A DNA stretch of 64,000 nt from a virus (lineage: Duplodnaviria; Heunggongvirae; Uroviricota; Caudoviricetes), in IMG/VR virus record IMGVR_UViG_3300027807_000001, positions 19,285 to 83,284 of that record; one strand, 5' to 3'. Made by a program: the position numbers and the translations under genes. Positions 20,652 to 62,591 of this stretch are shown here, one piece after another. Every line of letters starts with the position of its first letter. The first letter of the stretch is position 1. The notes under the pieces are model-generated. The model was not told the origin of the DNA. It saw nothing but the letters and a program-made list of their open reading frames with translations, and searched no databases.

Positions 20652-20885
20652 ATGAACAAGGGTATCTGTTGTTTAATTAACCCCTGCGTTAAGTGTCGAA
20701 TCTGCAACGAGAGCTGGTGCGAAGAACACTGGTTTGGGGTCGTTGACTCCAACACTGCTACCTCCCATTCATCTTCTTCCAATGAGTATGGTGGATGGGG
20801 AGTTTGCCCAAAGACCAAGCAGCACGTGCGATGGGATTCATCCAACTCTACTCGAGATTCGATATCTTGGATTTGCGCCGCTTAA
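20652..20885 (+). CDS. LCC-family mini-protein (ICCLINP)
   Basis: MNKGICCLINPCVKCRICNESWC; track start 20571 lies inside the previous gene. Confidence 0.55.
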   Translation: MNKGICCLINPCVKCRICNESWCEEHWFGVVDSNTATSHSSSSNEYGGWGVCPKTKQHVRWDSSNSTRDSISWICAA

Positions 20886-21012
20886 GATCTTCCTTCCGCT
20901 AGTTTGGAAGGAATAGACACGTTAGTCTTCAACTGAAGACAGCTGTCGAAAGGTTAACGAGGCTAAACCTTACAAAACCTCGAGTACGATAACGCTCAAC
21001 TCGAGCGTTCAA

Positions 21013-21399
21013 ATGACCGGAACAGGAGCTCCTGAAATCCTAGTTAGTCACGGAGCGCGTCGCGAGGATTGGTGCTATCGAGAGATAGCACTTGGCGGAC
21101 ACCTCCAGGTGTTCGTTCATTTTCAAGTCCACACGAACATCCGTGCTATATTTATGGGCTCACCTCCTCCTGATGGTAGAGAACTTTGTTGCCAAATCAA
21201 CCCTGCTCCTCTTTACATCATTCATAACAAGAAGATGGAGTACAAATTATGCGCGTTCTGCACACAGCCTATCTGTGAGCTGTGCATCGAAACATATAAG
21301 GCCTTAGACTTTTATCACCACAAATCTTGCAGAGATACGTGTCCTCACGATCGAAAGCATCATACCTTCTTCGCTCCCGATTTCGCGGCTTCTCCGTAG
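21013..21399 (+). CDS. LCC-family protein (LCCQINP), possibly starting at an internal ATG near 21157
   Basis: LCCQINPAPLY...CAFCTQPIC. Confidence 0.5.
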   Translation: MTGTGAPEILVSHGARREDWCYREIALGGHLQVFVHFQVHTNIRAIFMGSPPPDGRELCCQINPAPLYIIHNKKMEYKLCAFCTQPICELCIETYKALDFYHHKSCRDTCPHDRKHHTFFAPDFAASP

Positions 21400-21543
21400 A
21401 AAGATGGAACAATATAGATGCCTTGAGTGCAACCATTCGTGGGAAGCCTCCACAGGACCTCAAACGTGTTCCTGTAAATCAATTTGGGTGTTATGGATTA
21501 ACCATCCACTCATTCAGAAGTACTCCTAAGTCTACCCAACAAC

Positions 21544-21615
21544 GCCCTGTTAGTCTTAATGGTAGAGCGCTCCCTTTACACGGGAGAGAAAGAGGTTCGA
21601 TTCCTCTACGGGGCA
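21544..21615 (+). tRNA. tRNA-Val (anticodon TAC)
   Basis: acceptor GCCCTGT/ACGGGGC, anticodon arm CTCCC-TTTACAC-GGGAG, T-arm AGAGG-TTCGATT-CCTCT, CCA encoded to 21618. Confidence 0.7.
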
Positions 21616-21622
21616 CCACTTT

Positions 21623-21817
21623 ATGAAATGGCCAGACGGGAGGGATCTCTGCTGCACTGTCAATAGTTCATGGTTATGCTGCACTTTATGTCGTAATCCG
21701 ATATGCGACACCTGCGGTGAATCTTATAAGGTAGAAGGATATTTCCACCATCGCCGCTGCTGGACTGCATGTCCTCATGGCGCATTTTTTCATAGTCGAT
21801 TCGACGACAGACAATAA
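21623..21817 (+). CDS. LCC-family mini-protein (LCCTVN)
   Basis: motif DLCCTVNSSWLCCTLCRNPICDTC; starts 5 nt after tRNA. Confidence 0.55.
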   Translation: MKWPDGRDLCCTVNSSWLCCTLCRNPICDTCGESYKVEGYFHHRRCWTACPHGAFFHSRFDDRQ

Positions 21818-21832
21818 AGAGAATTCAACCCC

Positions 21833-22216
21833 ATGAAAAGTTCTTGGACCACTCCCGAAATGTCGCTCTCTCAAAGCTGGATGAGAACTGCTCTGGAAGA
21901 AATGTTCGTTGCGCTACGACGTCAAGGACAAGGACTAACTTTGGATCAAGAAGATGTCATCTGGGCTACTATGGGAATGCCTCGATATCCTACTCCTCTT
22001 GTTCGTAAAGGTATCGGAGTGAATGATACTCTCTCGCCCTCTGCGCCAGCTCCCGCTGCTCCCGCTGCTCCCTTACCTGCTAAGGCAGGGGATACGCTAA
22101 GCTTTCCCTCTCCTATCGCGGAAGACACAGAGATGCTAGAGGCGCCGCGGATCGATATCACTCAGACCGATGAATATAAAGCAATGCTAAAGGCACGCCA
22201 GGAGAGAGGATCATGA
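21833..22216 (+). CDS. hypothetical protein with P/A-rich linker
   Basis: ATG ORF of 127 aa. Confidence 0.5.
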   Translation: MKSSWTTPEMSLSQSWMRTALEEMFVALRRQGQGLTLDQEDVIWATMGMPRYPTPLVRKGIGVNDTLSPSAPAPAAPAAPLPAKAGDTLSFPSPIAEDTEMLEAPRIDITQTDEYKAMLKARQERGS

Positions 22217-22350
22217 CGATAGGATCAGGGATCGCTGTCGTAGGGATTTGGCTTGGAGTAGGGATAATCAGCAATAGAGATCCTGCCCGCGGCATGTTTG
22301 CCGCATTCTTCGCAACATTCGCTACAATGATGGTTTGCGCTCCAAAGTAA
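22213..22350 (+). CDS. small membrane protein (45 aa)
   Basis: ATGA overlap; hydrophobic. Confidence 0.3.
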   Translation: MTIGSGIAVVGIWLGVGIISNRDPARGMFAAFFATFATMMVCAPK

Positions 22351-22408
22351 TATAACCTGTAGCCGTAAGGCTATGATAGCTCCGCCCTTCAGCACCGTCA
22401 ATAGGGTA

Positions 22409-24270: not shown

Positions 24271-24343
24271 GGCCTCATAGCTTAATGGATAAAGCCCTCG
24301 CCTTCTAAGCGAGTTATTCCAGGTTCAATTCCTGGTGAGGCCA
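24271..24343 (+). tRNA. tRNA-Arg (anticodon TCT)
   Basis: acceptor GGCCTCA/TGAGGCC, anticodon arm CTCGC-CTTCTAA-GCGAG, T-arm CCAGG-TTCAATT-CCTGG. Confidence 0.75.
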
Positions 24344-24348
24344 AATTT

Positions 24349-24465
24349 ATGGTTAAGTTCAAATCAAGATTATGTTGTCTTGTCAACCCATTCGCCGAAT
24401 GCAAATACTGCAGAACAAAAATTTGTTCTGCATGCCAAAGAGCTCTCGGGGCCCTACATACCTAA
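24349..24465 (+). CDS. LCC-family mini-protein (LCCLVNP), 38 aa
   Basis: MVKFKSRLCCLVNPFAECKYCRTKICSAC; starts 6 nt after tRNA-Arg; below track cutoff. Confidence 0.5.
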   Translation: MVKFKSRLCCLVNPFAECKYCRTKICSACQRALGALHT

Positions 24466-24490: not shown

Positions 24491-24739
24491 ATGCGCAGAA
24501 GATGGACTTATAGATTCCAGAGGGTATCACTGGTGGATCTAGTCTCGAATAAAGATAAGACTGCGCTTCCCTGTATTATAAATGGGTGTCAAGAGTGCAA
24601 ACTCATACGCCTTGTCTGTAATATATTGAAGCACAATCGCGACGAATCATTTCGTCAACTAGATAAGCCTGCTATACTCCACTGTAGATGGTGTGGCCAC
24701 GAATTGTCTAAGTCTGCTTTTAAAAGAGTTATCCAGTAA
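24491..24739 (+). CDS. Cys-rich subfamily B protein (LPCIINGCQEC)
   Basis: subfamily B motif; CRWCGHEL. Confidence 0.5.
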   Translation: MRRRWTYRFQRVSLVDLVSNKDKTALPCIINGCQECKLIRLVCNILKHNRDESFRQLDKPAILHCRWCGHELSKSAFKRVIQ

Positions 24740-26469: not shown

Positions 26470-26763
26470 ATGACCCCGACGATAGAAGCCCCTGAGGTAG
26501 GTACCATCAGTATTTCGGATTCCCGAACAGAGAATGCAATGAATTGGAATGTCGTACTCCACAATTGCGACTGCCATACATTCACAGATGTAGAAGATTC
26601 TCTTGTCAGAGTTATCCGCTGCGACCTAGAGAAGGCGAAAGAGTACGCGATGACTGTTCACGAGAAAGGAGTCTGCGTCGTATTTTCAGCACACAAGGAA
26701 AGGGCGGAAGTAAAATATCTAGGATTAAAAGAAGACGGTCTAACAGTTGAACTGACTAAATAG
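26470..26763 (+). CDS. clpS: ClpS-like adaptor protein
   Basis: WNVVLHNCDCHTFTDVEDSLVRV...AMTVHEKGVCVVFSAHKERAE matches the ClpS core fold pattern. Confidence 0.65.
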   Translation: MTPTIEAPEVGTISISDSRTENAMNWNVVLHNCDCHTFTDVEDSLVRVIRCDLEKAKEYAMTVHEKGVCVVFSAHKERAEVKYLGLKEDGLTVELTK

Positions 26764-30569: not shown

Positions 30570-30950
30570 ATGATACTCTGGTTAGACGATATTCGAGATC
30601 CTTCGGCCTTTCGACCTTCCGATGATCGCTATGTGTGGTGTAAGACCAATACGGAGTTTATCCGCAAACTAGACACGATGAGCGCTCATATTGAAGGCGT
30701 CGCCTTCGATCACGATAAGAGTCACGCTCTCGACAGCGAGAGTGTTGTCGCTCCGTTCTCTTGCGACGAGACGTACGAGCCTTCTGTTCGTTATCTAGTT
30801 CTCTGGGCGGAGAAGTATGATAAGAGGGATTTCCCTGTCGAGATCATAACTTCTAATGTCGCAGGTGCAGATCGGTATAAGAAAATTCTTACCGCCGAAG
30901 ACAACACGCGGTTTAATATAATCATGAATCTTGGTGGCGTAAGAAGATAG
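30570..30950 (+). CDS. hypothetical protein (N-terminus MILWLDDIRD, receiver-like start)
   Basis: SD GAGGTAAAATTATG; no recognised catalytic motif. Confidence 0.5.
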   Translation: MILWLDDIRDPSAFRPSDDRYVWCKTNTEFIRKLDTMSAHIEGVAFDHDKSHALDSESVVAPFSCDETYEPSVRYLVLWAEKYDKRDFPVEIITSNVAGADRYKKILTAEDNTRFNIIMNLGGVRR

Positions 30951-30954: not shown

Positions 30955-31143
30955 ATGAATCTTTGTTGTCAAATCAACGCAGTGGTGTATTGTCAGTTCT
31001 GCGGAGTGGGAGTTTGTGGCACGTGCTATGCTAACCGAGAGTGGAGGCGGACCCCTACTTGCAGTCCCTGCACTCCACGTTCAATACATTTGACCCCAGA
31101 TGGGCATTGGTTAACAAAATTAAAGCAGCCAAAGAAATTATGA
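30955..31143 (+). CDS. LCC-family mini-protein (LCCQINA)
   Basis: MNLCCQINAVVYCQFCGVGVCGTC. Confidence 0.55.
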   Translation: MNLCCQINAVVYCQFCGVGVCGTCYANREWRRTPTCSPCTPRSIHLTPDGHWLTKLKQPKKL

Positions 31144-32562: not shown

Positions 32563-32751
32563 ATGTCTACTAATTTAATTTGTCTTGTTAAAGGACATTA
32601 CCCGTGCGACATAGAAGGTTGCACATGGTGCTACAACAACGATGAGATTACTGAGTGCTACCACTGCAAACAGCCTATAGAGAGGGATCTCTCTTCCTAT
32701 GTCGGCGTTAATGGTCCTTCTCACCCATACAAATGGCGATTAATAAAATGA
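32563..32751 (+). CDS. Cys-rich subfamily B protein (LICLVKGHYPC)
   Basis: subfamily B motif; CYHC. Confidence 0.5.
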   Translation: MSTNLICLVKGHYPCDIEGCTWCYNNDEITECYHCKQPIERDLSSYVGVNGPSHPYKWRLIK

Positions 32752-32921
32752 ATGATCTCGCCTGCTTAGTCAATGGGCATTATCCATGTAAAAATCGGAA
32801 CTGTGTAATTCATAATGCAGTAGTAGTAGAGTTGTGCTTTCAGTGCGGTCGAACGATAGAAAAAGCATCTGAGACGCCCACATCAGGTATTTACGAATGG
32901 CGATCAAAAGGAAGCGCTTAG
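32733..32921 (+). CDS. Cys-rich subfamily B protein (LACLVNGHYPC)
   Basis: tandem paralog of the previous gene. Confidence 0.5.
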   Translation: MAINKMNDLACLVNGHYPCKNRNCVIHNAVVVELCFQCGRTIEKASETPTSGIYEWRSKGSA

Positions 32922-33058
32922 AAAAGTTATGCTGTATCGTTAACACGCTAGTGTCTTGTGCATCGTGTGAACGGAAGTGGTGTAGCAAATGTTGGAAGTC
33001 TCTACCTTGGTGCGCAAAAAGTTCCTCTAAAAGACATTGGTTAATATTAAGAGCTTGA
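32897..33058 (+). CDS. LCC-family mini-protein (LCCIVNT), 53 aa
   Basis: MAIKRKRLEKLCCIVNTLVSCASCERKWCSKCW; below track cutoff. Confidence 0.5.
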   Translation: MAIKRKRLEKLCCIVNTLVSCASCERKWCSKCWKSLPWCAKSSSKRHWLILRA

Positions 33059-33078
33059 TAGAAGATACGAGGTTCTAA

Positions 33079-33297
33079 TTGTCTGAACAACTTTGCTGTA
33101 TAGTTAATCCGAGATTTAGATGCACCACTTGTAGACGCAGCTGGTGTAGTGGTCATCAGCACCTATGGCATATGTTTCCATGCAAAGTTAAGACAACGCC
33201 TGTTTGGCATTCTGAGAATGATAACTATCATGATCTGGAGAAAATGGGCCCGCCGGCCGATTCCGGGGACTACAAGGCCTGGTGGATTGAGGATTAG
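33079..33297 (+). CDS. LCC-family mini-protein (LCCIVNP)
   Basis: MSEQLCCIVNPRFRCTTCRRSWC. Confidence 0.55.
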   Translation: MSEQLCCIVNPRFRCTTCRRSWCSGHQHLWHMFPCKVKTTPVWHSENDNYHDLEKMGPPADSGDYKAWWIED

Positions 33298-34315: not shown

Positions 34316-34351
34316 CCTCACAAAAAGACTAGAGGACTCAGAGTATAATAT
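34316..34351 (+). promoter_or_regulatory. promoter-like element (copy 6), 37-nt identical core with copy 7
   Basis: CCTCACAAAAAGACTAGAGGACTCAGAGTATAATAT. Confidence 0.5.
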
Positions 34352-34770: not shown

Positions 34771-34977
34771 ATGAAGCTTCGTCGCCCCAAAGAACTTTGC
34801 TGCTTAATAAACTACAAGCTAACGTGCATCTATTGTAGAATCGTTTGGTGCAAAGATCACCACGATAATTCACGGAATGTAGTAGGCGCTCCATGCACGC
34901 AGCGAATAGGTAACTATGCGCCGGACGGGCACTGGAGCACTCCAGTTGGTCCAGAGGATAGAATCTCTTTTGGCTAA
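34771..34977 (+). CDS. LCC-family mini-protein (LCCLINY)
   Basis: KELCCLINYKLTCIYCRIVWC. Confidence 0.55.
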   Translation: MKLRRPKELCCLINYKLTCIYCRIVWCKDHHDNSRNVVGAPCTQRIGNYAPDGHWSTPVGPEDRISFG

Positions 34978-34990
34978 AATAAAAATTGAA

Positions 34991-35296: not shown

Positions 35297-35332
35297 TATA
35301 GAAGACATCTGGATTGATCTAGGTGGAGAAGG

Positions 35333-35563
35333 ATGATCACCAGGGCACCCAGTGGAAGAATGGAAGATAAGAAAGATTTAGCTTGCGTAGTTAACGGCTG
35401 TACTCCCAAACAAGTAGCGGATCTTGAGAGACAGGGCAAGGGGCTTGAAGCGCTTGTCCCTGGCGGCGACTATTGCGACAGATGCGGAAGCGCAATGCGC
35501 ATCTCCCAGATGTGGGCAGGAATGAAATGGAGATACTCTTGGTATAAGTTGCCTCACAGCTAG
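35333..35563 (+). CDS. Cys-rich subfamily B protein (LACVVNGC)
   Basis: subfamily B motif; CDRCGS. Confidence 0.5.
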   Translation: MITRAPSGRMEDKKDLACVVNGCTPKQVADLERQGKGLEALVPGGDYCDRCGSAMRISQMWAGMKWRYSWYKLPHS

Positions 35564-35598
35564 AACGCCGCAGCCCTCCTATTACAATACCTTATTGC

Positions 35599-35799
35599 AT
35601 GAATACGCCACTATGTTGTATCATCAACTCGTATGTTGTATGTGAGTGTAAAGGGAGGCTGTGTATGGATCATTGGACAGAGGCAGTCAAAGATCCTGTA
35701 GCAGAATGGCTATGCCCTAACTGCAAGCGAACATGGAAGGACAAATACAGCATAGTGACACTTCCTGTCGTTAACGTTATACATAACAAGCAGCTGTGA
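35599..35799 (+). CDS. LCC-family mini-protein (LCCIINS)
   Basis: MNTPLCCIINSYVVCECKGRLC...CPNC. Confidence 0.55.
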   Translation: MNTPLCCIINSYVVCECKGRLCMDHWTEAVKDPVAEWLCPNCKRTWKDKYSIVTLPVVNVIHNKQL

Positions 35800-36002
35800 A
35801 CTCTAAACTCTGTTGTTGCGTTAATACCTGGAGTAAATGTTCTCTCTGTGGGAAAAGATGGTGCGCCGAGTGCTGGGATGCTGAAAAAGAAGATCACCGT
35901 GATTCAGATAAGCTAAATATATGCCCATCTGCGGGCGTTCAATTGCATTGGGTTAAGCCGCTTAGGCAACCCTATACTTTAGAAGAAAGGCGCTTACGAT
36001 AA
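35796..36002 (+). CDS. LCC-family mini-protein (LCCCVNT)
   Basis: ATGA overlap; MNSKLCCCVNTWSKCSLCGKRWC. Confidence 0.55.
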   Translation: MNSKLCCCVNTWSKCSLCGKRWCAECWDAEKEDHRDSDKLNICPSAGVQLHWVKPLRQPYTLEERRLR

Positions 36003-36202: not shown

Positions 36203-36214
36203 CCTTTAACAACC

Positions 36215-36436: not shown

Positions 36437-36439
36437 TTC

Positions 36440-42173: not shown

Positions 42174-42398
42174 ATGTCTAAATTACAATTCTGGATTGTT
42201 AAATACGATCGTGGAGAAAAGTCTCACGCGACCGGATGGAATGCAGGGCAAGCCTTCGGGTGCTCATCTATTTGTAGAATGGGCCCGTATAACTGCCCAG
42301 AAGTAAGTCGTGCACCTTTTGACGGAAAGAACTTCCCCTCTTGTGTCCCCTGTGCGAAGTTAACTCAAAAGATGCTCCCAATGATAGCGATCAAATAA
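42174..42398 (+). CDS. hypothetical Cys-containing protein
   Basis: 74 aa. Confidence 0.45.
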   Translation: MSKLQFWIVKYDRGEKSHATGWNAGQAFGCSSICRMGPYNCPEVSRAPFDGKNFPSCVPCAKLTQKMLPMIAIK

Positions 42399-42400
42399 TT

Positions 42401-42694
42401 ATGGCAGACCTCTGTTGCTACGTATCTCCTATAATCAATACGGAGTACCCTTACTCTTATTGCTACTGTGTTCATTGTCATGATCTTATCTGCAATGAAT
42501 GCTCCGGAAAATTTCTTTACATTTCTGATGATGATGGAAGTGGATACTTTCACCACCAGAAATGTAAAGAAATCTGCGATGAGAATCCCTCCATTTATAA
42601 CAGTCAGTGGCATGAAAAGTACCCACGAACAGAGGATTGTAATGATCATGCCCTCTGCTTAAAAAGAAAGATTGTCACCGGGAAGAAGCCTTGA
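42401..42694 (+). CDS. LCC-family protein (LCCYVSP)
   Basis: MADLCCYVSPIINTEYPYSYCYCVHCHDLICNEC. Confidence 0.55.
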   Translation: MADLCCYVSPIINTEYPYSYCYCVHCHDLICNECSGKFLYISDDDGSGYFHHQKCKEICDENPSIYNSQWHEKYPRTEDCNDHALCLKRKIVTGKKP

Positions 42695-43226: not shown

Positions 43227-43262
43227 CCTCACAAAAAGACTAGAGGACTCAGAGTATAATAT
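43227..43262 (+). promoter_or_regulatory. promoter-like element (copy 7)
   Basis: identical 37-mer to copy 6. Confidence 0.5.
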
Positions 43263-44287: not shown

Positions 44288-44355
44288 TATCAATTAACTA
44301 TTTACATCAATGTCATGATCTGTGAACAGATACTAAGCATTAACTAGAAAAGTCT

Positions 44356-44589: not shown

Positions 44590-44596
44590 TCTGTCT

Positions 44597-49414: not shown

Positions 49415-50467
49415 TTGAGACCACTCGAAGTTGAAGAAGTCCTCAAATCGATTATCAGCAAGGGAGTTAAGTGTCCTGTCGTTGTGAAGGGAGACGCCGG
49501 AATCGGAAAGAGCCAGGTCATCCAGAAGGTTGGTCGGGACTTGGGCATGCACGTGATTGATTTGCGTCTTGCCCAGATGGAGCCGGGAGATTTGATTGGT
49601 CTTCCCCGGACCGACCCGGAATCCCACAAGACGGTGTGGTACGCTCCGGAGTGGTGGCCTTCGAAGAGCGATAAGGGGACTATCGTATTCTTCGACGAGC
49701 TCAATCGCGCGCCTGTCGATGTGCGACAGGCGGTTTTCCAGGTGCTGACGGAGTATAAGATGCACACGCACGTCCTCCCTGAGAACACCTTCCTCGTCGC
49801 GGCTATCAACCCTGATGAGGGCGGCAAGATGAATTACCAGGTCGAGCAGTTCGACCCCGCCATGGTAAATCGCATGTGCTTCATCTCCATGGAACCTGAT
49901 GGGCAGCAGTGGATCAACTGGGCCACCGCTGCGGGCGTGCATGAGATGGTGATTAAGTTTATCGCCGTCAATACCGCGATGTTGTACGCCGGCAGCGAGA
50001 CGGGCCCTTTCCCGTCGCCTCGCTCGTGGGTCCGCTTGTCGGATCTGATGAATGCGAATGCGATTCCGGCGTCAGCCCAATCGGAGGTTATCTCCGGCCT
50101 GATCGGTGAGAAGCCGGCGATCTCGTTCATTCGCTTCTTGGATAAGTCTTACAAGAAGCCGGTGAGCGGCAAGGAAGTCCTGGAATCGTTCGCGAAGTTC
50201 AAGGACAAGATCAAGGCGCAGAAGAACGACGAGAACTTCGTTACGATCTCGGAGCTCGTCGGTCTCCTGGGCGACGGAGCGAAGCTGAAGAAGGATCAGC
50301 TGACCAACGTCACCGACTTCGCCTTGGCGTTGAAGCAAGAGGAGAAGATGGCCTTGCTGAAGAAGCTGCCGAATTCTCTTCTGTCGAAGCTCGGTCAGAC
50401 CTCGCAGGACCTGTGCAATACGATCGCCTCTATCGCGGCTGAAATGGACAAGGAAAGAGGGCGGTAA
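49415..50467 (+). CDS. MoxR-type AAA+ ATPase
   Basis: TTG start with strong SD AAAGGAGGAG; Walker A GDAGIGKSQ, Walker B IVFFDELNRAP, MoxR-type sensor region. Confidence 0.85.
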   Translation: MRPLEVEEVLKSIISKGVKCPVVVKGDAGIGKSQVIQKVGRDLGMHVIDLRLAQMEPGDLIGLPRTDPESHKTVWYAPEWWPSKSDKGTIVFFDELNRAPVDVRQAVFQVLTEYKMHTHVLPENTFLVAAINPDEGGKMNYQVEQFDPAMVNRMCFISMEPDGQQWINWATAAGVHEMVIKFIAVNTAMLYAGSETGPFPSPRSWVRLSDLMNANAIPASAQSEVISGLIGEKPAISFIRFLDKSYKKPVSGKEVLESFAKFKDKIKAQKNDENFVTISELVGLLGDGAKLKKDQLTNVTDFALALKQEEKMALLKKLPNSLLSKLGQTSQDLCNTIASIAAEMDKERGR

Positions 50468-52285: not shown

Positions 52286-52454
52286 GCGCTTGTGCTGCAT
52301 CGTTAATGAGATCGTCAAATGCGAAGACTGCGGCTATGGTATTTGTAAAGGTCACTTCTTCAAGAAGAGGGCTAGCAGCAGAACAAGATGTCTAAAGTGT
52401 TTCCGCAAGCAGATCATGCGGCACAGGCAAGGGAATGAACAACCTAAAATCTAA
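52269..52454 (+). CDS. LCC-family mini-protein (LCCIVNE)
   Basis: MVDQSKRLCCIVNEIVKCEDCGYGIC. Confidence 0.55.
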   Translation: MVDQSKRLCCIVNEIVKCEDCGYGICKGHFFKKRASSRTRCLKCFRKQIMRHRQGNEQPKI

Positions 52455-52686
52455 AGGAGACGGTACAGATTTATGTTGTCTAATAGCGCCTATTCGGAAG
52501 TGTTTAAACTGCGGTCTTACGCTATGTAATGACCACTGGTGGAATTCTGCTAGGGATTTGTTAGGGCTGTCTCCTCTGCCGACAACCGGAGGGGAGGATC
52601 CCCACGCTGTATGCCCTAGATGTTTTTATGCCAAAAAAGCTACATCTAAAGAGTTAGAGAGCTTACGCACCTGGGAAATTGCATGA
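52435..52686 (+). CDS. LCC-family protein (LCCLIAP)
   Basis: KGDGTDLCCLIAPIRKCLNCGLTLC; paralog of 51080. Confidence 0.55.
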   Translation: MNNLKSKGDGTDLCCLIAPIRKCLNCGLTLCNDHWWNSARDLLGLSPLPTTGGEDPHAVCPRCFYAKKATSKELESLRTWEIA

Positions 52687-53371: not shown

Positions 53372-53517
53372 TCCAACACCATCGCTGCCTAGCAAATGCT
53401 ATAGCTGTCTTGTAGAAGGAAAGTGCGCAGAGCATCATGCCGATAATTGTATAAGAAAAGTTATTTGGCGACTACAACAAAGTTTAGAAGAGTTATCGAA
53501 ACCATCCGAGGATTAAA
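53372..53517 (+). CDS. Cys-rich variant (LVCLINP...CYSC), GTG start
   Basis: shifted-Cys variant, short. Confidence 0.35.
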
Positions 53518-54785
53518 TGGACAAAATACAAAAAGCGCAGATAGCATTACTTACTTCTAATGGTATCTTCTACGCTGCCCTCATGCAACAGATGAATCGC
53601 ATTGAAGGGAAAGATGTCCTCCCTAAGGATGCTCTCGCTGCTGTTCTCGTCCAGAACGGTCGTATCAATCTTTATACGAACTGCGAACTCTACGACAAGT
53701 TTAATCTTGATCAGATGTGTCGAATCTTGGAGCATGAGATGCTCCACGTGATCTTAGAGCATGGTAGCCGTTGCCCGAGCGGCGCAGGTTCTCTGTGGAA
53801 TATCGCATCAGATCTTGCCGTTAATTCATTAATCCCCGGCATGGATTTAGGGCTTCTTCCTGGTAAAGATCAGTTCAAAGATTTCCCCCTTGCCAAGTCT
53901 GCCGAATTTTACTACGGTCTGTTAAAGGATAAGCAGGGCAAAGGCGACTTATCTATTGACAAAGATGGCGATGTAAGTATGAAGGGTAAGGGCGGAAAGA
54001 TGGAGAAGGTAAAGACGGGCAAGTGCCCCTCTACTGAAAAGAGCGATTCTAAGTCCTCCGACGCGGAAAAGCTTGCCAAAGAAGTAGTTAAGCAAGCGGT
54101 TGCAGAAGCGATGGCAGAATCGTCTAGAACAGCCGGCGGCGCTCCTGCTGGACTTGAATCTATCATTGATGATCTTCTGAAGAAGAGCACCGTTAATTGG
54201 AAAGCAGTCCTTCGCCAGTTCGTCGGCTCTGCAGTCAAGTGTGGATCCAAATCTACCTGGAAAAGACAGTCCCGTCGCTTTGGAGATACGCAGAAGGGCA
54301 AGATGCCCGACCGAATGTTAGAGGTGGCAGTCGCTATCGATACCTCGGGGTCTATCACAGATGAAGATCTTGCCGAGTTTGTTGGTGAGATGAAGGGTAT
54401 CTTGAAGTCATACAAGTCAAAGATTCACGTCGTTGAGTGTGGCACATCCGTCGACAGGGCCTACGATCTTAAGCCGCATACCAAGATCAATTCAAAGTTC
54501 TTCGGTCGCGGCGGCGGAGACTTACGCCCCCCGTATGAATACTTCAAGGAAAAGAGGAAGAAGCCCAATGTATTAGTGTATTTTACGGACTGCTATGAAC
54601 AAGCTCCCGACAAAGAAACTATCAAGACTTTGTGGGTACGACCGAGTCAGGTTGACGGTACTAAGCCGCCTGAGATGCCCTTTGGCAAAGTTCTGCAGAT
54701 CCCTCGCCGGGGAGATTCTAGATCAGGCTACTGCCCTATTTGTAATCAGCCGGGGTGTAATTGTAACACGGCGGCGCGTCGCTAA
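53517..54785 (+). CDS. vWA-domain protein with N-terminal HExxH putative metallopeptidase domain (MoxR partner type), paralog 1
   Basis: HEMLHVILEH near the N-terminus; MIDAS motif VAIDTSGSI in the C-terminal vWA domain; 422 aa. Confidence 0.75.
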   Translation: MDKIQKAQIALLTSNGIFYAALMQQMNRIEGKDVLPKDALAAVLVQNGRINLYTNCELYDKFNLDQMCRILEHEMLHVILEHGSRCPSGAGSLWNIASDLAVNSLIPGMDLGLLPGKDQFKDFPLAKSAEFYYGLLKDKQGKGDLSIDKDGDVSMKGKGGKMEKVKTGKCPSTEKSDSKSSDAEKLAKEVVKQAVAEAMAESSRTAGGAPAGLESIIDDLLKKSTVNWKAVLRQFVGSAVKCGSKSTWKRQSRRFGDTQKGKMPDRMLEVAVAIDTSGSITDEDLAEFVGEMKGILKSYKSKIHVVECGTSVDRAYDLKPHTKINSKFFGRGGGDLRPPYEYFKEKRKKPNVLVYFTDCYEQAPDKETIKTLWVRPSQVDGTKPPEMPFGKVLQIPRRGDSRSGYCPICNQPGCNCNTAARR

Positions 54786-57804: not shown

Positions 57805-59016
57805 ATGTCTATGGACAAGATGCAGAAGGCGCTGATCCATCTGCTGGGCGGCGACGGCATCTTTTATGCATCTCTGTTGATGCAGATGAGAACAATTGAC
57901 GGGAAGGATCTCCCCAAGGATGCTCTCGCCGCGGTCTCCGTCCAAAACGGACGGATTCAGTTACACATTGATCCCCCTCGCTTAGAGCCATTTTCCGTTG
58001 ATCAGGTCGCCCGGATCTTAGAGCATGAGTGCTTACATCTTGTGCTAGAACACATCGGCCGCATGGAAAATCGGCACCCTTACCTTTGGAATATCGCTAC
58101 GGACCTTGCAGTGAATTCGTTGATCAACGGCATGGATATGGGATTGCTCTGCGGCAAGGAGCCTTTTACAGATATCCCTGAAAAGAAGTCGGCCGACTTC
58201 TACTACGCGATCCTTCGCGACAAATATGATATGAAGGAGGTTACCTTCAACGCCGACGGCACCGTTACCGTTAAAGATGGTAAGACCGGCAAATCGGTGA
58301 CGTTGAAGCCTACAGGTGATCATAAAGATTGGGAGAAGTCTTCGAGTTCCGCAGCTGAAGCTTTGGCGAAAGAGGTAATTAAGCAGGCGGTGGCAGAAGC
58401 CGCGGCTTCTGCCAAAGCTGCAGGCAAGTGGCCTGCGGGTGTGAAAGAGCTTGTTGACGACCTGCTTGGTGCAGAGAAGATTAACTGGAAGAGGTTGTTG
58501 CGCCAGTATATCGGTAATAAGGTTAAGTCTGGCCAAAAGAATTCATGGAAGCGAGAGAGTAAGCGATTCGGGGAGATGCAGAAAGGTAAGCTGAAGAATC
58601 GCATCGTTAAGATAGGTGTCGCTATCGATACCTCTGGGTCTGTCAGCTCTGCCGAACTTCAGGAATTCATGAACGAGATCAACGCTATCATGGGCTCTTA
58701 TAAGACAGATATTACGATCTTAGAGTGTGACGCTGCTGTGCAGAAAGTTTACACCATGAAAAGGCATATGAAGGTTGATCCTAAGTTCGCCGGCAGGGGA
58801 GGAACTTCTTTTATTCCTCCTTATGAATACTTCAAGGGCGTAGGCAAAGGTAAGCGCCCGGAGCTACTTGTGTATTTTACGGATGCTGAAGGAACTGCTC
58901 CTGCTACTGAAGAAATCAAGACCGTGTGGGTGATTACCTCTGCTTCTAGCATTGAAACCATGCCTTGGGGCAGAGTACTGAAAATTCCGCGAGATGAAGG
59001 AAAGAGGAAGCGCTAG
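57805..59016 (+). CDS. vWA-domain protein with N-terminal HExxH putative metallopeptidase domain, paralog 2
   Basis: HECLHLVLEH; VAIDTSGSV MIDAS motif; collinear with 53517-54785. Confidence 0.75.
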   Translation: MSMDKMQKALIHLLGGDGIFYASLLMQMRTIDGKDLPKDALAAVSVQNGRIQLHIDPPRLEPFSVDQVARILEHECLHLVLEHIGRMENRHPYLWNIATDLAVNSLINGMDMGLLCGKEPFTDIPEKKSADFYYAILRDKYDMKEVTFNADGTVTVKDGKTGKSVTLKPTGDHKDWEKSSSSAAEALAKEVIKQAVAEAAASAKAAGKWPAGVKELVDDLLGAEKINWKRLLRQYIGNKVKSGQKNSWKRESKRFGEMQKGKLKNRIVKIGVAIDTSGSVSSAELQEFMNEINAIMGSYKTDITILECDAAVQKVYTMKRHMKVDPKFAGRGGTSFIPPYEYFKGVGKGKRPELLVYFTDAEGTAPATEEIKTVWVITSASSIETMPWGRVLKIPRDEGKRKR

Positions 59017-59718: not shown

Positions 59719-59916
59719 ATGTTTTGTCATAAGTGCGGGAATCAGATTCCGGAAGAGCGGCTGGAAATTTTACCGGAGACCCGGGTATGCGTTAGCTGCT
59801 CAACTGAGCCGCCTTACCGCGGCTTCGTAAGCACTACTCCTCGTCATAAGGGCACAGAACTTTCAATTACGAAAGATCCTGAAGCTGCCGCTCAAATGGA
59901 TCGATACCGAATTTAA
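59719..59916 (+). CDS. TraR/DksA-like C4 zinc-finger protein
   Basis: CHKCGNQIPEERLEILPETRVCVSC matches TraR/DksA C-terminal finger spacing. Confidence 0.5.
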   Translation: MFCHKCGNQIPEERLEILPETRVCVSCSTEPPYRGFVSTTPRHKGTELSITKDPEAAAQMDRYRI

Positions 59917-59918: not shown

Positions 59919-60125
59919 ATGGAAGAGTGGTATGATCCAACGCAAACTAAAAGACAGCTTCCTTGTATTTTAAATGGATGTAAGCCATGTGTCGCTAAAA
60001 TATACTGTCAGACACATGACAAGCCCGTTAAAGGTAACATCCCTTCACTACCATCTCATTGTGCCGAATGCGGGGAGTACATTTATGATATTGATAAAGA
60101 TACCAAAGGCATGTTCGAGGGCTAA
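59919..60125 (+). CDS. Cys-rich subfamily B protein (LPCILNGCKPC)
   Basis: subfamily B motif. Confidence 0.5.
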   Translation: MEEWYDPTQTKRQLPCILNGCKPCVAKIYCQTHDKPVKGNIPSLPSHCAECGEYIYDIDKDTKGMFEG

Positions 60126-60545: not shown

Positions 60546-60547
60546 TT

Positions 60548-60766
60548 ATGTCTAGATCACGCTTTCTGAAGAGTGCCTCTGACCACGAGATTGGACGTAT
60601 TAAGCAGTTTACAGCTAAGGCCCGAGACGAAGAACATCTTAGACAACTACTTCTAGTGCGAGCGGCTAGATGCGGGCCTGAAAAATTGGAAAGGTTTATC
60701 GCCGCTCTAAAACAGATGGGCAGACAGGATCTTGCTGGTTTTATTGAAATGGTAATGAAGAAGTAA
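60548..60766 (+). CDS. hypothetical protein
   Basis: 72 aa. Confidence 0.45.
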   Translation: MSRSRFLKSASDHEIGRIKQFTAKARDEEHLRQLLLVRAARCGPEKLERFIAALKQMGRQDLAGFIEMVMKK

Positions 60767-60785
60767 ATAACCGAGGTGAAATAGC

Positions 60786-61220
60786 ATGGCCTGTGAAGGT
60801 GACAAAATCGCCAGTTACGATATGGGGCAGGTGTGTTATCGCTTAGAAGGATGCCCTGGGTGTGCGAAGTGCATTATCAAGTGCGATCCCCCTTGTGAGA
60901 ACTGCCCAACTTGGGAAGGAACCAAACCTCGCGATCCAGAGCCCGGCGACTACGTAACGGTAGTGCAGCCTATCATCACTACTGACTATAAGGGACCTAA
61001 GTGGTCAGCTGCAATGGATTTAGCTGTTGGAAGGCTGGCTTGGGTCAAGAATGGAGACCCGGTTAACGGGTATAAACTCAAGTTCACGACTACTTCTAAG
61101 GATATCTTAGATCAATTCGTATACCCGCCGCAGGCGCTAAAGCTTGCATTTCCCGGCGATCAGGCTATCGACAAGATGATTAAGACCGCAAAGGAAGGGT
61201 CAGTTAACGAAGAGATGTAA
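60786..61220 (+). CDS. Cys-rich hypothetical protein (CPGCAKCIIKCDPPCENC)
   Basis: 144 aa. Confidence 0.5.
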   Translation: MACEGDKIASYDMGQVCYRLEGCPGCAKCIIKCDPPCENCPTWEGTKPRDPEPGDYVTVVQPIITTDYKGPKWSAAMDLAVGRLAWVKNGDPVNGYKLKFTTTSKDILDQFVYPPQALKLAFPGDQAIDKMIKTAKEGSVNEEM

Positions 61221-61222
61221 GG

Positions 61223-61744
61223 ATGAATGCAAACTCGTTGAGACAGCAGCTGGATCTAATATCGTTACTTAGATACGGATATGACATAGGATATAAAATG
61301 AACTTACATATAGGGGATTTACTTAGAGGACCTATTGCATACCAGGGAGACTATTTACTGAAGGTAATAGACTCGCAAAACGGTTATAGTATCTCTTATG
61401 GCCAAGCTTCTACTGTAGAAATTGTCGGCCGTAATATGGGCCCTTTACCTGTGGGATATAAGTGTAATGTAACACATGATGGTACTCTTCGAGGAGCAAC
61501 TAATCAAGATTTAATAGCATTCGGTTGGGCGCCAAAAGACGAAAAGATTAACAGTTCATACAAAGGAGAAACTAAAATGAAGTTTGGCACGTGGCTTAAC
61601 GACTATGTTGAGAAGCATCGTGACGTACTGTTCACGATTGCGGTAGTTCTCGTTCTTGATCATTATGTATTCGAGGGTAAGTTTCGCCAGAAGATCGAGG
61701 ATATGGTCGAGGGCTTCTTAAAGAAGAATACGGCCGGAGCGTAA
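61223..61744 (+). CDS. hypothetical protein with C-terminal transmembrane segment
   Basis: 173 aa. Confidence 0.5.
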   Translation: MNANSLRQQLDLISLLRYGYDIGYKMNLHIGDLLRGPIAYQGDYLLKVIDSQNGYSISYGQASTVEIVGRNMGPLPVGYKCNVTHDGTLRGATNQDLIAFGWAPKDEKINSSYKGETKMKFGTWLNDYVEKHRDVLFTIAVVLVLDHYVFEGKFRQKIEDMVEGFLKKNTAGA

Positions 61745-61748
61745 CCTT

Positions 61749-61874
61749 ATGAAGGATAAGGCACTCCCTTTCTTAATAGGGTTCGCTCTTGGCCATAGGG
61801 GGAGCTCTGTGCTAGTGCACGGAGTATACCTGACTATTATAGCTCTTCTGCTTGTTGCAAGACATTGGCATTAA
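61749..61874 (+). CDS. small membrane peptide (41 aa)
   Basis: ATG 5 nt after previous stop. Confidence 0.3.
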   Translation: MKDKALPFLIGFALGHRGSSVLVHGVYLTIIALLLVARHWH

Positions 61875-62029
61875 CTTCCAACAAGCTGTGTTGTATCGTT
61901 AATCCTTATGTAGAGTGCCCTGGGTGCAGCCATGGAATATGTGAACAGTGTCTTCTCGATGGCACAGGTGTGCGCTCATTGGCGTGTGCCGTATGCAATA
62001 ATGCTCTCCGCTGGAGCAAACTTAGATGA
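61865..62029 (+). CDS. LCC-family mini-protein (LCCIVNP), non-ATG (TTG) start
   Basis: LTSNKLCCIVNPYVECPGCSHGICEQC; frame open from 61799 with no ATG. Confidence 0.4.
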   Translation: MALTSNKLCCIVNPYVECPGCSHGICEQCLLDGTGVRSLACAVCNNALRWSKLR

Positions 62030-62370
62030 AAGTAGAATCTCTAGGACGGCCTGCACACTTTTATATTCCAGCTAGTAAGTGGAATGATCCGGCCTACTCC
62101 TTTAGGAATAAGACGATTGACGTATTGATCCACGAGTTCATGATAGGAAACTATAATGGCTACACTGTAAGAGGTCCCTATAAGGGTAACTGGCGCCCAC
62201 ACAAAGGTGTTGCGCCAGTAGTGGAATCTGTTATAGAGATAAAGGTTTCTTTCAAAGGTAAAGACCGTATACCAAAACTTCAGAAGTTCTTAGCGGGTAT
62301 GTGTTCTCTAATGAAAGAAGAATGCCTTTACCTAGAAACAGGGGAGGATAGTTGGATAATTCATCCTTAG
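62026..62370 (+). CDS. hypothetical protein (114 aa)
   Basis: ATGA overlap. Confidence 0.5.
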   Translation: MKVESLGRPAHFYIPASKWNDPAYSFRNKTIDVLIHEFMIGNYNGYTVRGPYKGNWRPHKGVAPVVESVIEIKVSFKGKDRIPKLQKFLAGMCSLMKEECLYLETGEDSWIIHP

Positions 62371-62591
62371 TGCCACCTCTATGCTGTACAATCAATCCAA
62401 TAAGAAGATGTCAAATATGTCGATGGACTGTATGTAACAGCCACTGGTGGACAAATTTCTTCGCAGGAGACGATTTCGAGATCGTAAACGATCGATGGCA
62501 TGTACCTACAGTAGGTGGTCGAGATACGACCGCAGTCTGTCTTCGATGTAAAGGAGTGTCGTGGGGAACCTATGAAACAAATGACATCTAA
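62352..62591 (+). CDS. LCC-family mini-protein (LCCTINP)
   Basis: PPLCCTINPIRRCQICRWTVC. Confidence 0.55.
   Translation: MDNSSLVPPLCCTINPIRRCQICRWTVCNSHWWTNFFAGDDFEIVNDRWHVPTVGGRDTTAVCLRCKGVSWGTYETNDI

Follow-up and report, generated by a model that had tools for sequence, protein, structure and literature searches.

A phage-encoded expansion of small cysteine-rich proteins with a probable RING/B-box-class zinc-binding fold

The DNA analysed in this study, a stretch of 64,000 nucleotides referred to as the window, is a portion of a jumbo-phage contig, 210 kb long, in a JGI metagenome. The contig belongs to an uncultivated bacteriophage from peat moss with a genome of at least 210 kb, and positions 20652-62591 form an accessory plus-strand arm. 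A tmRNA and four tRNAs are encoded in this setting. Neighbouring genes with PHROG matches encode a CCA-adding enzyme, an Rnl1-type RNA ligase, PNKP, a cREC receiver domain, ClpS, MoxR, and two DUF2201 proteins in which a putative metallopeptidase is combined with a VWA domain. An Acb5-family gene lies just beyond the window end.

We searched all six-frame open stretches of the window with HMMs and identified 47 canonical members of a small Cys-rich protein family, 45 of them within 20652-62591. A full-length HMM added four divergent members and six ORFs of a possibly related 'L-x-C-[ILV]-[ILV]-N-G' subgroup (five in this range). As shown in Table 1, the plus strand of 20652-62591 thus carries 45 canonical members, four divergent members and five possible relatives. 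These 54 ORFs represent about 47% of the plus-strand ORF-level genes there and take up about 28% of the bases of the 42-kb interval. An initial annotation had estimated about 50 members in this interval, which our count bears out; two canonical members and one possible relative also lie upstream of it in the window, and at least three further members lie beyond the 3' end. Lengths were 38-139 aa with a median near 70 aa, so that the lower end of the annotated range (38-130 aa) was correct and the upper end was not.

Table 1. Family members, possible relatives and promoter-like motifs in the window.
Feature	Position	Strand	Remarks
Member, 64 aa	1677..1871	+	Outside 20652-62591; insertion variant, core NLCCEVNPTVIVYRKRVCQRC; HMM match
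Member, 75 aa	1922..2149	+	Outside 20652-62591; ELCCYVARAGGSVVISCDSCGWYICNEC
Possible related subgroup member	13204..13458	+	LACLINRHALCNEEC; full-length HMM, weak match
Member, 77 aa	20652..20885	+	GICCLINPCVKCRICNESWCEEH
Member, 81 aa	21154..21399	+	Insertion variant; ELCCQINPAPLYIIHNKKMEYKLCAFC
Member, 64 aa	21623..21817	+	Start 5 nt 3' of tRNA-Val
Member, 38 aa	24349..24465	+	Shortest; start 6 nt 3' of tRNA-Arg
Possible related subgroup member	24491..24739	+	LPCIINGCQECK; full-length HMM
Member, 68 aa	24739..24945	+	CxC variant; QLCCRVNPRVKCKCGAVACVTC
Member, 77 aa	30327..30560	+	P0002
Member, 62 aa	30955..31143	+	
Member, 62 aa	31140..31328	+	ATGA overlap with 30955..31143
Possible related subgroup member	32563..32751	+	LICLVKGHYPCDIEGC; full-length HMM
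Possible related subgroup member	32733..32921	+	LACLVNGHYPCKNRNC; full-length HMM
Member, 53 aa	32897..33058	+	
Member, 72 aa	33079..33297	+	TTG start; LCCIVNPRFRCTTCRRSWCSGH
Divergent member, 92 aa	33442..33720	+	CLPCQVQRIIGFDVECYRCGEGYCHRC; full-length HMM, E 5.9e-5
Promoter-like motif	34316..34351	+	CCTCACAAAAAG-N13-AGTATAATAT; upstream of operon containing array 34771-36436
Member, 68 aa	34771..34977	+	
Member, 126 aa	34916..35296	+	Start uncertain, 36 residues ahead of motif; ortholog in contig L104, 54% identity
Possible related subgroup member	35333..35563	+	LACVVNGCTPKQ; full-length HMM
Member, 66 aa	35599..35799	+	CxC variant; ortholog in contig L118, 52% identity
Member, 68 aa	35796..36002	+	AlphaFold model 1
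Member, 66 aa	36002..36202	+	Nearest paralog 35796..36002 (47% identity)
Member, 73 aa	36215..36436	+	
Member, 73 aa	38819..39040	+	Insertion variant
Member, 82 aa	39839..40087	+	GTG/TTG start; insertion variant
Divergent member, 117-aa ORF	42341..42694	+	DLCCYVSPIINTEYPYSYCYCVHCHDLICNEC; full-length HMM
Member, 70 aa	42691..42903	+	TTG start
Member, 63 aa	42896..43087	+	
Truncated/degenerate member, 47 aa	43077..43220	+	LCCILNP retained, later Cys absent
Promoter-like motif	43227..43262	+	CCTCACAAAAAG-N13-AGTATAATAT; upstream of members 43340-44821
Member, 66 aa	43340..43540	+	Variant spacing
Member, 68 aa	43533..43739	+	JGI call: 102-aa form, P0004
Member, 74 aa	43694..43918	+	
Member, 68 aa	43885..44091	+	TTG start
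Member, 77 aa	44356..44589	+	
Member, 68 aa	44615..44821	+	
Member, 84 aa	45908..46162	+	Immediately 3' of PNKP; ortholog in contig L132, 53% identity
Member, 73 aa	47055..47276	+	
Divergent member, 76 aa	47269..47499	+	LCLVCLTGQRVSGEVFWCEACHRQVCVNH; full-length HMM
Member, 61 aa	48610..48795	+	LVC variant
Member, 81 aa	48780..49025	+	Insertion variant
Member, 66 aa	49009..49209	+	TTG start
Member, 44 aa	49206..49340	+	ATGA overlap
Member, 80 aa	51080..51322	+	Third Cys replaced by His
Member, 78 aa	51276..51512	+	
Member, 67 aa	52082..52285	+	
Member, 61 aa	52269..52454	+	
Member, 83 aa	52435..52686	+	P0001; AlphaFold model 2
Member, 73 aa	52930..53151	+	CxC variant
Member, 65 aa	53161..53358	+	Long insertion following NP
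Divergent member, 58 aa	53340..53516	+	GCLVCLINPTPSLPSKCYSC; full-length HMM
Member, 76 aa	54795..55025	+	TTG start
Member, 92 aa	55998..56276	+	GTG start; P0006
Possible related subgroup member	59919..60125	+	LPCILNGCKPCVAKIYCQTH; full-length HMM
Member, 139 aa	60126..60545	+	P0066-like; additional C-terminal region, fold unassigned; ortholog in contig L106, 46% identity
Member, 54 aa	61865..62029	+	TTG start; tail RING-like, CxxC...CxxC
Member, 73-79 aa	62370..62591	+	Start GTG at 62370 or TTG at 62352

A loose motif regex gave 26 matches in the three plus-strand frames and none in the three minus-strand frames. A degenerate DNA pattern encoding L-C-C-x-[IV]-N-x4-C-x2-C-x4-C matched exactly at 23 sites, all on the plus strand, against a chance expectation of 0.00 (100 shuffles). 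Synonymous codons were used about evenly at the conserved residues (six Leu codons; TGT and TGC at about 50:50), and conservation is therefore at the protein level and not that of a DNA repeat. No long minus-strand ORF lies opposite the arrays. These results confirm that the family at 20652-62591 is real and far above chance.

A consensus was built from 198 strictly spaced, non-redundant members. The signature is [KNR]-L-C-C-x-[VIL]-[NH]-[PT]-x3-C-x2-C-x4-C-x-[DE]-[C/H]-(W), and the residue immediately ahead of Leu is K, N or R, which corrects the '[basic]-x-L' given initially. Of these sequences, 122 have Cys and 72 have His as the sixth ligand. A loop of some 22 residues separates the signature from a seventh conserved Cys (138/147 sequences, often C-P), after which comes a conserved aromatic in the C-terminal strand (112/147). 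Cys/His is invariant or almost invariant at seven positions. At least two additional Cys/His were present in 97% of the tails, in which Cys, His and Trp are enriched. All conserved positions are putative metal ligands or hydrophobic core, and the remaining positions are variable. The C-terminus had been described as hypervariable; in the predicted structures this 'tail' belongs to the fold, and the proteins are modelled as whole single domains rather than as a motif with a random tail. Adjacent Cys residues are unusual as a ligand pair. An eighth ligand varied in position, with 44 of 138 sequences lacking Cys/His beyond the seventh Cys. With conservation limited to seven ligand positions, the presence of a second zinc site is uncertain.

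Net charge ranged from -8 to +17 (mean +2.3); even leaving Zn-thiolate charge out of account, about one third of members are neutral or acidic. K/R was frequent at three core positions: one directly precedes Leu, another precedes the first knuckle Cys, and the third lies two residues N-terminal to the fifth Cys. A TM-like segment was absent in 44 of the 47 window members, no signal peptide was evident among family members, and a search of them for informative domain fusions found none.

AlphaFold model 1 had a pLDDT of 80 (about 88 across residues 10-50), and model 2 a pLDDT of 83.5 and pTM of 0.71 (pLDDT above 90 across residues 11-40). Both models showed a hairpin at the CxxC knuckle, then a helix beginning at the third Cys pair; a C-terminal strand was present in model 2. 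This topology fits that of RING-like binuclear treble clefs, described with ligand strings CCCCCCHH or CC/HCCCCHH (PMC4506424). The predicted first ligand pair of the family is adjacent Cys-Cys instead of CxxC. The best BFVD matches were mostly viral RING proteins (E >=0.28), and the only weak fold or profile neighbours were RING, U-box, B-box, FYVE and AN1 domains. Searches of Pfam, NCBIfam, PHROG and PDB gave no match above threshold; sub-threshold Pfam/PDB matches were sporadic and mostly to binuclear treble-clef families. Ligand spacing and predicted topology suggest that each protein is probably a compact two-zinc cross-braced treble-clef domain of the RING/B-box class, in agreement with the zinc-binding treble-clef look noted at the outset. 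By these profile searches the family is previously undescribed and matches no named family, as in the initial annotation.

We then considered gene arrangement. The longest uninterrupted array contains eight genes (42341-44091), or ten if one 264-nt gap is permitted, rather than the 12 first reported; the second longest contains seven (34771-36436). Tight joining was upheld, with 35 of 47 genes either overlapping the preceding ORF or beginning no more than 20 nt from it, but ATGA or 1-nt overlaps, said to be the usual form, account for only 10 of 47. Shine-Dalgarno-like matches, which had been cited in favour of the genes, are weak or absent in about half of them. A promoter-like motif, CCTCACAAAAAG-N12-13-AGTA[AT]AATAT, occurred 12 times against 1.3 expected; it lies upstream of array-containing operons and is kept in related contigs. 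From gene order and this repeated motif, we infer that the family genes are in polycistronic units with RNA-repair and translation-maintenance genes.

The closest paralogs in the window are only 47% identical, and there are therefore no recent duplicates. Several paralogs have full-length orthologs at 45-54% identity in related phage contigs; for the PNKP, MoxR and SPFH proteins of these contigs, identity is 67-73%. Where orthologs were close enough to measure, dN/dS was 0.07-0.40, which indicates purifying selection and does not fit the earlier description of the paralogs as diversifying. We found 180 members across 58 metagenome loci, with arrays present on IMG/VR contigs, and 234 representative proteins without a name, almost all of them stand-alone and 55-160 aa long. 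A search of 185,579 bacterial and archaeal genomes yielded no credible member; relatives are restricted to uncultivated phage-like contigs and are often arrayed. On these sequence comparisons, the expansion is ancient, lineage-specific, maintained and common to a phage clade, and is not ongoing hypervariation.

We give about an even chance to the reading that zinc-binding mini-proteins, cytoplasmic and stand-alone, have undergone an old lineage-specific expansion, are co-transcribed and serve as a panel of target-specific binders. The binding modules of this panel would share one stable metal scaffold, with selection retaining each paralog for a partner of its own, either protein or nucleic acid. 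Jointly, the paralogs may serve host takeover, counter-defence or regulation in infection. The basis of this functional proposal is the neighbourhood and the conservation pattern.

The members may instead be sequence-specific transcription factors or structural DNA/RNA-binding proteins, as proposed for the zinc ribbons of Bacillus phage G (PMC7824862). That precedent, the positive mean charge, the recurrent K/R and the location among RNA-repair genes and tRNAs, with two members starting 5-6 nt past a tRNA, argue for such a role. However, the charge spread is very wide, known DNA-binding zinc-finger profiles gave no match, and more than 50 regulators would be extreme in a genome of about 210 kb; we consider this unlikely, though it is the strongest of the alternatives. 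Quite improbable is a role as adaptors or E3-like factors that hand host proteins over to proteolysis (through phage ClpS, host ClpAP or the MoxR/VWA-metallopeptidase pair) or block ubiquitin-like conjugation defences, the latter by analogy with the use of RING/U-box-like folds by eukaryotic viruses. The weak structural neighbours are mainly U-box, RING and B-box, ClpS, MoxR and both DUF2201 proteins are encoded in the window, and phage ClpS has been discussed as a means of redirecting host proteolysis (PMC7824862). However, the fold similarity is non-significant, no E1, E2 or Ubl genes were seen within the window, and the ClpS/MoxR association is mere co-location in a large accessory arm.

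With its conserved N-terminus, variable C-terminus and numerous tandem copies, the family superficially resembles precursors of ribosomally synthesised modified peptides with a conserved leader and hypervariable core, such as multi-copy lanthipeptide precursors. We disfavour this as very improbable because the Cys/His ligand pattern continues through the supposed core to the seventh Cys and C-terminal aromatic, AlphaFold predicts a single compact domain with high confidence, and ortholog conservation spans the full length. Radical-SAM, YcaO, lanthionine synthetase, leader peptidase and exporter genes were also absent among the 86 other window ORFs scanned. Finally, the JGI gene caller took only 7 of 30 members in a 21-kb stretch and at one place preferred a minus-strand ORF, which, with the weak Shine-Dalgarno matches, might suggest that these are not genes but a chance or antisense product or a DNA-level repeat (a recombination site or regulatory element). 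We reject this with near certainty, given the excess of DNA-pattern matches, the lack of opposing long ORFs, the fully mixed synonymous codons, dN/dS below 1, hundreds of homologs with identical architecture on other contigs and confident structure predictions. The initial view that the ORFs are not antisense artefacts thus stands.

Overall, the initial interpretation is partly supported. For the family, a host-interaction or anti-defence role may reasonably be inferred from the neighbourhood. The sole comparable phage case found in the literature is the zinc-ribbon expansion of Bacillus phage G (PMC7824862), and the roughly 54 copies described here exceed its approximately 35.

The size and coding status of the LCC-motif family were determined by pattern and profile searches of the window. 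A loose regular expression for the motif gave 26 matches in the plus-strand frames and none in the minus-strand frames. A 57-nt degenerate pattern for L-C-C-x-[IV]-N-x4-C-x2-C-x4-C matched exactly at 23 positions, all on the plus strand, with 0.00 expected from 100 shuffles. When six-frame open stretches were searched with an HMM of the strict matches, 47 canonical members were identified, two of which (1677-1871 and 1922-2149) lie outside 20652-62591. A full-length HMM added four divergent members, as well as six ORFs from an 'L-x-C-[ILV]-[ILV]-N-G' subgroup that may be related; five of these six fall within that range. In total, 54 genes were found in 20652-62591, which is about 47% of the ORF-level plus-strand genes and 28% of the bases. 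Three further members were located past the window, at window-equivalent 69.1, 71.3 and 71.5 kb, and the copy number on the whole contig was greater than 60. BLAST clustering of all plus-strand ORFs showed no other paralog family of similar size, the runner-up having four members. These results confirm the expansion of about 50 paralogs described in the initial annotation. The motif began 2-17 residues past the start codon, with the Leu at median position 5. At the conserved Leu, Cys and Asn, the synonymous codons were all in about equal use, indicating that selection acts on the protein and that the motif is not a DNA repeat. The alternative that the ORFs are a non-coding artefact was rejected.

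The genes were closely packed, and 35 of the 47 members overlapped the preceding ORF or sat 20 nt or less from it. Arrays of up to 12 genes, usually joined by ATGA overlaps, had been proposed. However, the longest uninterrupted arrays contained eight and seven genes, and an ATGA or 1-nt overlap was found in only 10 of the 47 members. Of the 30 family genes in 26440-47819 (contig L001), only 7 were annotated by the JGI gene caller. It left 35800-36440 blank despite the three members there, and placed a minus-strand ORF (32770-33162) over two members. Since most members of that stretch are not called, the family is under-represented in protein databases. This is an annotation blind spot, in which a standard pipeline misses most members of one stretch and the databases remain largely without the family.

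We then aligned members from the window and related contigs. In 198 non-redundant sequences with strict spacing, the core was [KNR]-L-C-C-x-[VIL]-[N>H]-[P>T]-x3-C-x2-C-x3-[W/aliphatic]-C-x-[DE]-[C 62% / H 36%], and Trp frequently followed directly after the sixth ligand. The part after the core had been regarded as simply hypervariable, which did not hold. At least two further Cys/His were present in 97% of the tails, which were enriched in Cys, His and Trp. A seventh Cys, often as C-P, followed a loop of median 22 residues in 138 of 147 aligned sequences, and an aromatic residue was close to the C-terminus in 112 of the 147. The conserved ligand positions are thus seven (C, C, C, C, C, C/H, C). 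The eighth ligand was variable and could take one of three forms, a His directly in front of the C-terminal aromatic, a His within the loop or the last Cys of a CxxC, and 44 of the 138 sequences had no Cys or His beyond the seventh Cys. This pattern suggests that all conserved positions are metal ligands or hydrophobic core, the rest being variable. No signal peptide was evident in the window members, 44 of 47 were without a TM-like hydrophobic segment, and their net charge ranged from -8 to +17 (mean +2.3). In three homologous metagenome proteins (P0003, P0005 and P0024), a single ORF of 132-156 aa contained the family domain twice, which could be a true tandem fusion or read-through between neighbouring array genes.

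The fold was investigated using AlphaFold2. Member 35796-36002, modelled with 42 window paralogs as alignment, gave a pLDDT of 80, and about 88 over residues 10-50. Member 52435-52686, modelled with 147 family sequences, gave a pLDDT of 83.5 and a pTM of 0.71, with more than 90 over residues 11-40. Both models contained a short L-C-C helix, a CxxC-knuckle hairpin and a helix from the next Cys pair (ligands 5 and 6). In the second model, the hairpin was E21-23/E29-30, the helix started from ligand 5, and a C-terminal strand (E80-82) carried the conserved Trp. A zinc ribbon, which has two CxxC knuckles on two beta-hairpins, was considered and is disfavoured, as ligands 5 and 6 begin a helix in both models. 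In RING-like binuclear treble clefs, the primary hairpin and a C-terminal strand form a three-stranded sheet, two zinc ions are bound in a cross-braced manner, and the strings of eight ligands are CC/HCCCCHH for B-box and CCCCCCHH for ZZ (PMC4506424). The predicted elements would fit this description, with weak similarity.

The initial annotation had matched the motif to no named family, and profile searches bore this out for 147 members against Pfam and for the family profile against PDB. The Pfam matches were scattered and below threshold, mostly to binuclear treble-clef families (ANCHR B-box, FYVE, AN1, RING_4, TFIIH C1, B-box, PHD, zf-UBP and IBR). One of the 147 members matched zf-B_box (PF00643; E 0.0023) and three matched ANCHR-like_BBOX (PF22586; best E 0.0037), both below the gathering cut-off. 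Among the RING finger profiles (C3HC4/C3H2C3; zf-RING_2, zf-C3HC4 and others), a single member of the 147 matched zf-RING_4 (E 1.2e-5) and the others matched none; compared with the RING spacing C-x2-C...C-x-H-x2-C-x2-C...C-x2-C, the family has CC instead of CxxC and CxxC instead of CxH. Against PDB, the family profile gave the Rabphilin FYVE domain at E 0.066 and the TRIM2 B-box at E 0.023 to 1.4. PHROGs returned only four single marginal matches for 36 members (E >=0.045), NCBIfam returned none for 42 members, and the structure matches in BFVD had viral RING proteins on top but at E >=0.28. As the fold and profile evidence is weak but alike in kind, the family was provisionally placed in the RING/B-box structural class and in no named family. 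The proposed treble-clef type of metal fold is therefore backed by the model topology and the weak profile neighbours, while every profile match stays below its curated threshold. There is good support for the inference that the members bind zinc in a treble-clef fold, probably a binuclear and RING/B-box-like one. An adjacent Cys-Cys where the first CxxC pair would stand is, to our knowledge, unusual.

The age of the expansion was evaluated from sequence divergence. The closest paralog pair in the window was 47% identical over 62 residues, and most pairs were little alike outside the core. Several window paralogs had full-length orthologs in related contigs at 45-54% identity, and member 45908-46162 adjoined the polynucleotide kinase-phosphatase (PNKP) gene both in the window and in the related locus L132. 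For ortholog pairs close enough for informative synonymous sites, which were closer orthologs from other contigs, dN/dS was 0.07-0.40; dS was saturated between window paralogs and for all pairs including the window, so that no value was obtainable there. The low paralog identity, the orthologs and the dN/dS values indicate that the expansion is old and predates the split of these phages. Each copy appears to be kept by purifying selection, and the suggestion that the tails are currently diversifying was not upheld.

The CCA-adding enzyme gene had 100% nucleotide identity on JGI contig 3300009510|Ga0116230_10000007 (210,340 bp), on which the window is reversed, and three further samples contain identical, shorter contigs. 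Contigs L001-L004 were 99.99-100% identical to the window and carry no polymorphism information. No nucleotide match to the window was found among 50,697 GenBank phage records by megablast and blastn with 20 kb and 8 kb queries. The AAA ATPase showed about 30% identity to its best cultured relatives, which are jumbo phages of Xanthomonas, Klebsiella, Salmonella, Ralstonia, Erwinia and Pseudomonas. From their annotation, the larger genes of the window appear to be a typical jumbo-phage set (see the table). As large minus-strand genes lie upstream, the window constitutes most of a long plus-strand accessory arm. Four tRNA genes (Met, Val, Arg and Leu) are on the plus strand like the tmRNA, which they adjoin at the beginning of the arm. 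Both DUF2201 proteins contain a VWA domain and a putative metallopeptidase, and the PHROGs label for this family, 'HNH endonuclease', looks like a mis-annotation. Downstream of the Acb5-family gene are genes for a COOH-NH2 ligase, a GATase and an ATP-dependent DNA ligase. A separate four-member paralog family of 78-131 aa is found at 5213-5608, 7425-7661, 8956-9312 and 10425-10805. GC content is 0.54-0.58 at 8-12 kb of the window and about 0.46 elsewhere.

Features annotated in the window and just beyond its 3' end
Feature	Position	Strand	Remark
BCS1-like AAA ATPase			phrog_7485, E 7e-93
ClpS adaptor	26470-26763		
Metallophosphoesterase			among larger window genes
SPFH protein			among larger window genes
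CCA-adding enzyme	36440-37819		
T4 Rnl1-type RNA ligase			among larger window genes
Polynucleotide kinase-phosphatase (PNKP)			among larger window genes
cREC_REC cyclic-phosphate receiver domain	30570-30950		tied to RNA repair
MoxR-type AAA ATPase and two paralogous DUF2201 proteins	49415-50467, 53517-54785, 57805-59016		
HNH/NUMOD4 endonuclease			among larger window genes
Phage_zn_bind_8 zinc finger	46210-46497		
Rubrerythrin-like protein	46502-47044		
DksA/TraR-type zinc finger	59719-59916		
tmRNA	623-992	+	Rfam 84.6 bits; tag peptide DKSLLAVANEIVNNAFARELAVA
110-aa gene, Pfam PF26761 'Acb5' match	L210:13025-13357		~250 nt beyond window 3' end
Promoter-like motif	8215, 17915, 28331, 34316, 43227, 49304, 57703; variants 8146, 8859, 13693	+	repeat search

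A k-mer search of intergenic DNA revealed the plus-strand motif CCTCACAAAAAG-N12-13-[TA][TA]AGTA[AT]AATAT, with 12 occurrences within one mismatch against 1.3 expected. It is kept in the related contigs L095, L123, L179 and L187, and looks like a phage-specific upstream box joined to a sigma-70-like extended -10 element. A generic scan for sigma-70 promoters and terminators gave the same counts as the shuffled expectation. The copy at 34316 heads a unit running through 34771-36436 into the CCA enzyme gene, and that at 43227 heads one running through 43340-44821 into PNKP. Two family genes start 5-6 nt past the 3' ends of tRNA-Val and tRNA-Arg (junctions at 21618-21623 and 24343-24349), which implies co-transcription with the mRNA 5' end set by tRNA processing. 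Given the unit layout and the promoter-like motifs, the family genes seem to share transcripts with genes for RNA repair and translation maintenance. It is established that in T4-type phages such RNA-repair genes counter host anticodon nucleases (discussed in PMC7824862). A second repeated element, GTTAGTCACGG...(10-60 nt)...CCGTGCACA[AT]TT, was observed at 9747, 21043, 32528 and 50535, with variants at 19737, 22409 and 51043. Its CACGG and CCGTG parts could pair as a variable-length hairpin, and it had no Rfam match at the gathering threshold.

To determine the distribution of the family, protein and DNA collections were searched. When 5.8 billion proteins were searched with a word index, the only two matches were proteins of the contig itself, partly because the JGI caller had annotated so few members in that 21-kb stretch. 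An exhaustive profile search of 1.84 billion representatives yielded 234 proteins at E <=1e-3, nearly all of 55-160 aa with the motif at the N-terminus, and a few of them two-copy fusions. The homologs checked had no name beyond 'hypothetical protein', and the extensions of the longer ones checked contained no recognisable Pfam domain. A DNA-pattern scan of IMG/VR found arrays on other viral contigs, among which IMGVR_UViG_3300038416_000116 has at least 21 members and 3300033155_001115 at least 11. The metagenome scan gave at least 114 loci, at least 58 of them with at least 180 HMM-confirmed members, and up to 14 per 9.7 kb among the matches listed. Related contigs have the gene set of the window, namely PNKP (68-73% amino acid identity), MoxR (73%), SPFH (67-69%), Rnl1 (57%), the CCA enzyme (44%) and an AAA ATPase. 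The family thus appears, by sequence, to be common to a whole clade of uncultivated phage-like contigs. In GTDB, where 185,579 species of bacteria and archaea were each represented by one genome, 64 loci were found, essentially all by chance. The sole plausible match was an identical 59-aa ORF (…LVLCCLINPFPACQRCSRYHC…) at L045:2335-2514 and L081:4447-4626, two small contigs binned into gammaproteobacterial MAGs, and it may be mis-binned phage DNA or a hint of the host. A tblastn search of single and concatenated cores, whose sensitivity is limited for domains this short, gave nothing better than E ~9 in the 50,697 GenBank phage records and no match in a Bacillus phage. Full-text literature searches found no description of the family.

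These results demonstrate a very large, old, maintained and phage-restricted set of tiny Cys/His-rich single-domain proteins. Paralog families this large are rare because phage genomes are compact, yet this one accounts for nearly half of the genes in its arm and is found again throughout a clade of phages from peat, soil and sediment. The age of the paralogs and the purifying selection on them suggest that the phage depends on dozens of different small binders. Conservation restricted to the scaffold, the retention of dozens of paralogs, their diverse charges and the counter-defence or host-takeover neighbourhood modestly favour the reading that the family is a panel of target-specific binders. 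A more specific proposal is a phage effector library of a new class, built on a RING/B-box-like mini-scaffold that would hold two zinc ions and begin with a unique Cys-Cys ligand pair. One environmental jumbo-phage clade would have amplified and maintained it in more than 60 paralogs per genome, each against a different host factor. We regard this version as possible but rather unlikely. In it, each paralog would neutralise or redirect one host factor, such as a defence nuclease or another immune protein.

Other functions were considered alongside target-specific binding. The members may be DNA- or RNA-binding regulators; transcription-factor or DNA-binding roles have been proposed for the zinc-ribbon expansion of Bacillus phage G (PMC7824862). 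They might also serve as adaptors for proteolysis or as E3-like factors. Multi-copy RiPP precursor families, for example the prochlorosin precursors, have a conserved, unstructured leader and a hypervariable core, and maturase, protease or exporter genes lie close by. The present family looks similar in that its numerous short genes stand in tandem and are conserved towards the N-terminus but variable towards the C-terminus. However, its proteins are predicted to fold over their entire length into a metal-binding domain, the conservation between orthologs also extends over the full length, and no maturase-type Pfam domain was detected among the window ORFs scanned (10 large and 76 mid-size), so that RiPP precursors are disfavoured. 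If the members are target-specific binders, the family would offer a ready supply of candidates for inhibiting or modulating bacterial targets, as well as tiny scaffolds that are stabilised by metal and able to evolve.

Both the structural class and the expansion of small zinc-binding proteins in a jumbo phage as a phenomenon are already known. What seems new is an unnamed family, below threshold in each profile library searched, with a distinctive Cys-Cys-led signature. Its Cys/His string may be of the eight-ligand CCCCC[C/H]-C-[C/H] type of B-box/RING-like treble clefs, its eighth position being variable, and its models show the knuckle hairpin and the helix from ligands 5 and 6, with the C-terminal strand in the second model. 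Ligands 2-6 are spaced x7, x2, x4, x2, which we take to fit B-box type 1. Unlike that class, it has no profile match at any curated threshold, its first ligand pair is the adjacent Cys-Cys of L-C-C-x-V-N-P at 2-17 residues from the N-terminus, and the eighth ligand has no fixed place. The proteins are also stand-alone, phage-encoded and massively paralogous, and no partner from a ubiquitin system was seen in the window.

A 2021 survey of jumbo phages described the zinc-ribbon family of Bacillus phage G, a lineage-specific expansion to about 35 copies, as 'unprecedented' (PMC7824862). In both cases, a jumbo phage encodes a very small protein, known or predicted to bind zinc, in dozens of paralogous copies. 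Those of phage G have been described as zinc ribbons, whereas the present family looks like a RING/B-box-type treble clef, is spread over a whole clade of contigs, and exceeds the published copy number (at least 54 copies within 42 kb, more than 60 across the contig). As the tblastn search gave no credible match in GenBank phages, a set assumed to include phage G, the two are different families at the BLAST level.

Large eukaryotic DNA viruses carry RING, ankyrin and BTB multigene families, as in poxviruses, iridoviruses and giant viruses. The present family differs from these in that its host is bacterial, without a canonical ubiquitin system, and in that there is no sequence-level kinship, all E values being 0.28 or higher. 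It is similar in having dozens of diverged paralogs of a small interaction scaffold in an accessory genome arm, and its best BFVD matches are such viral RING proteins. If the effector-library proposal is true, bacterial viruses would have in this family an equivalent of the RING, ankyrin and BTB multigene families known from giant eukaryotic viruses.
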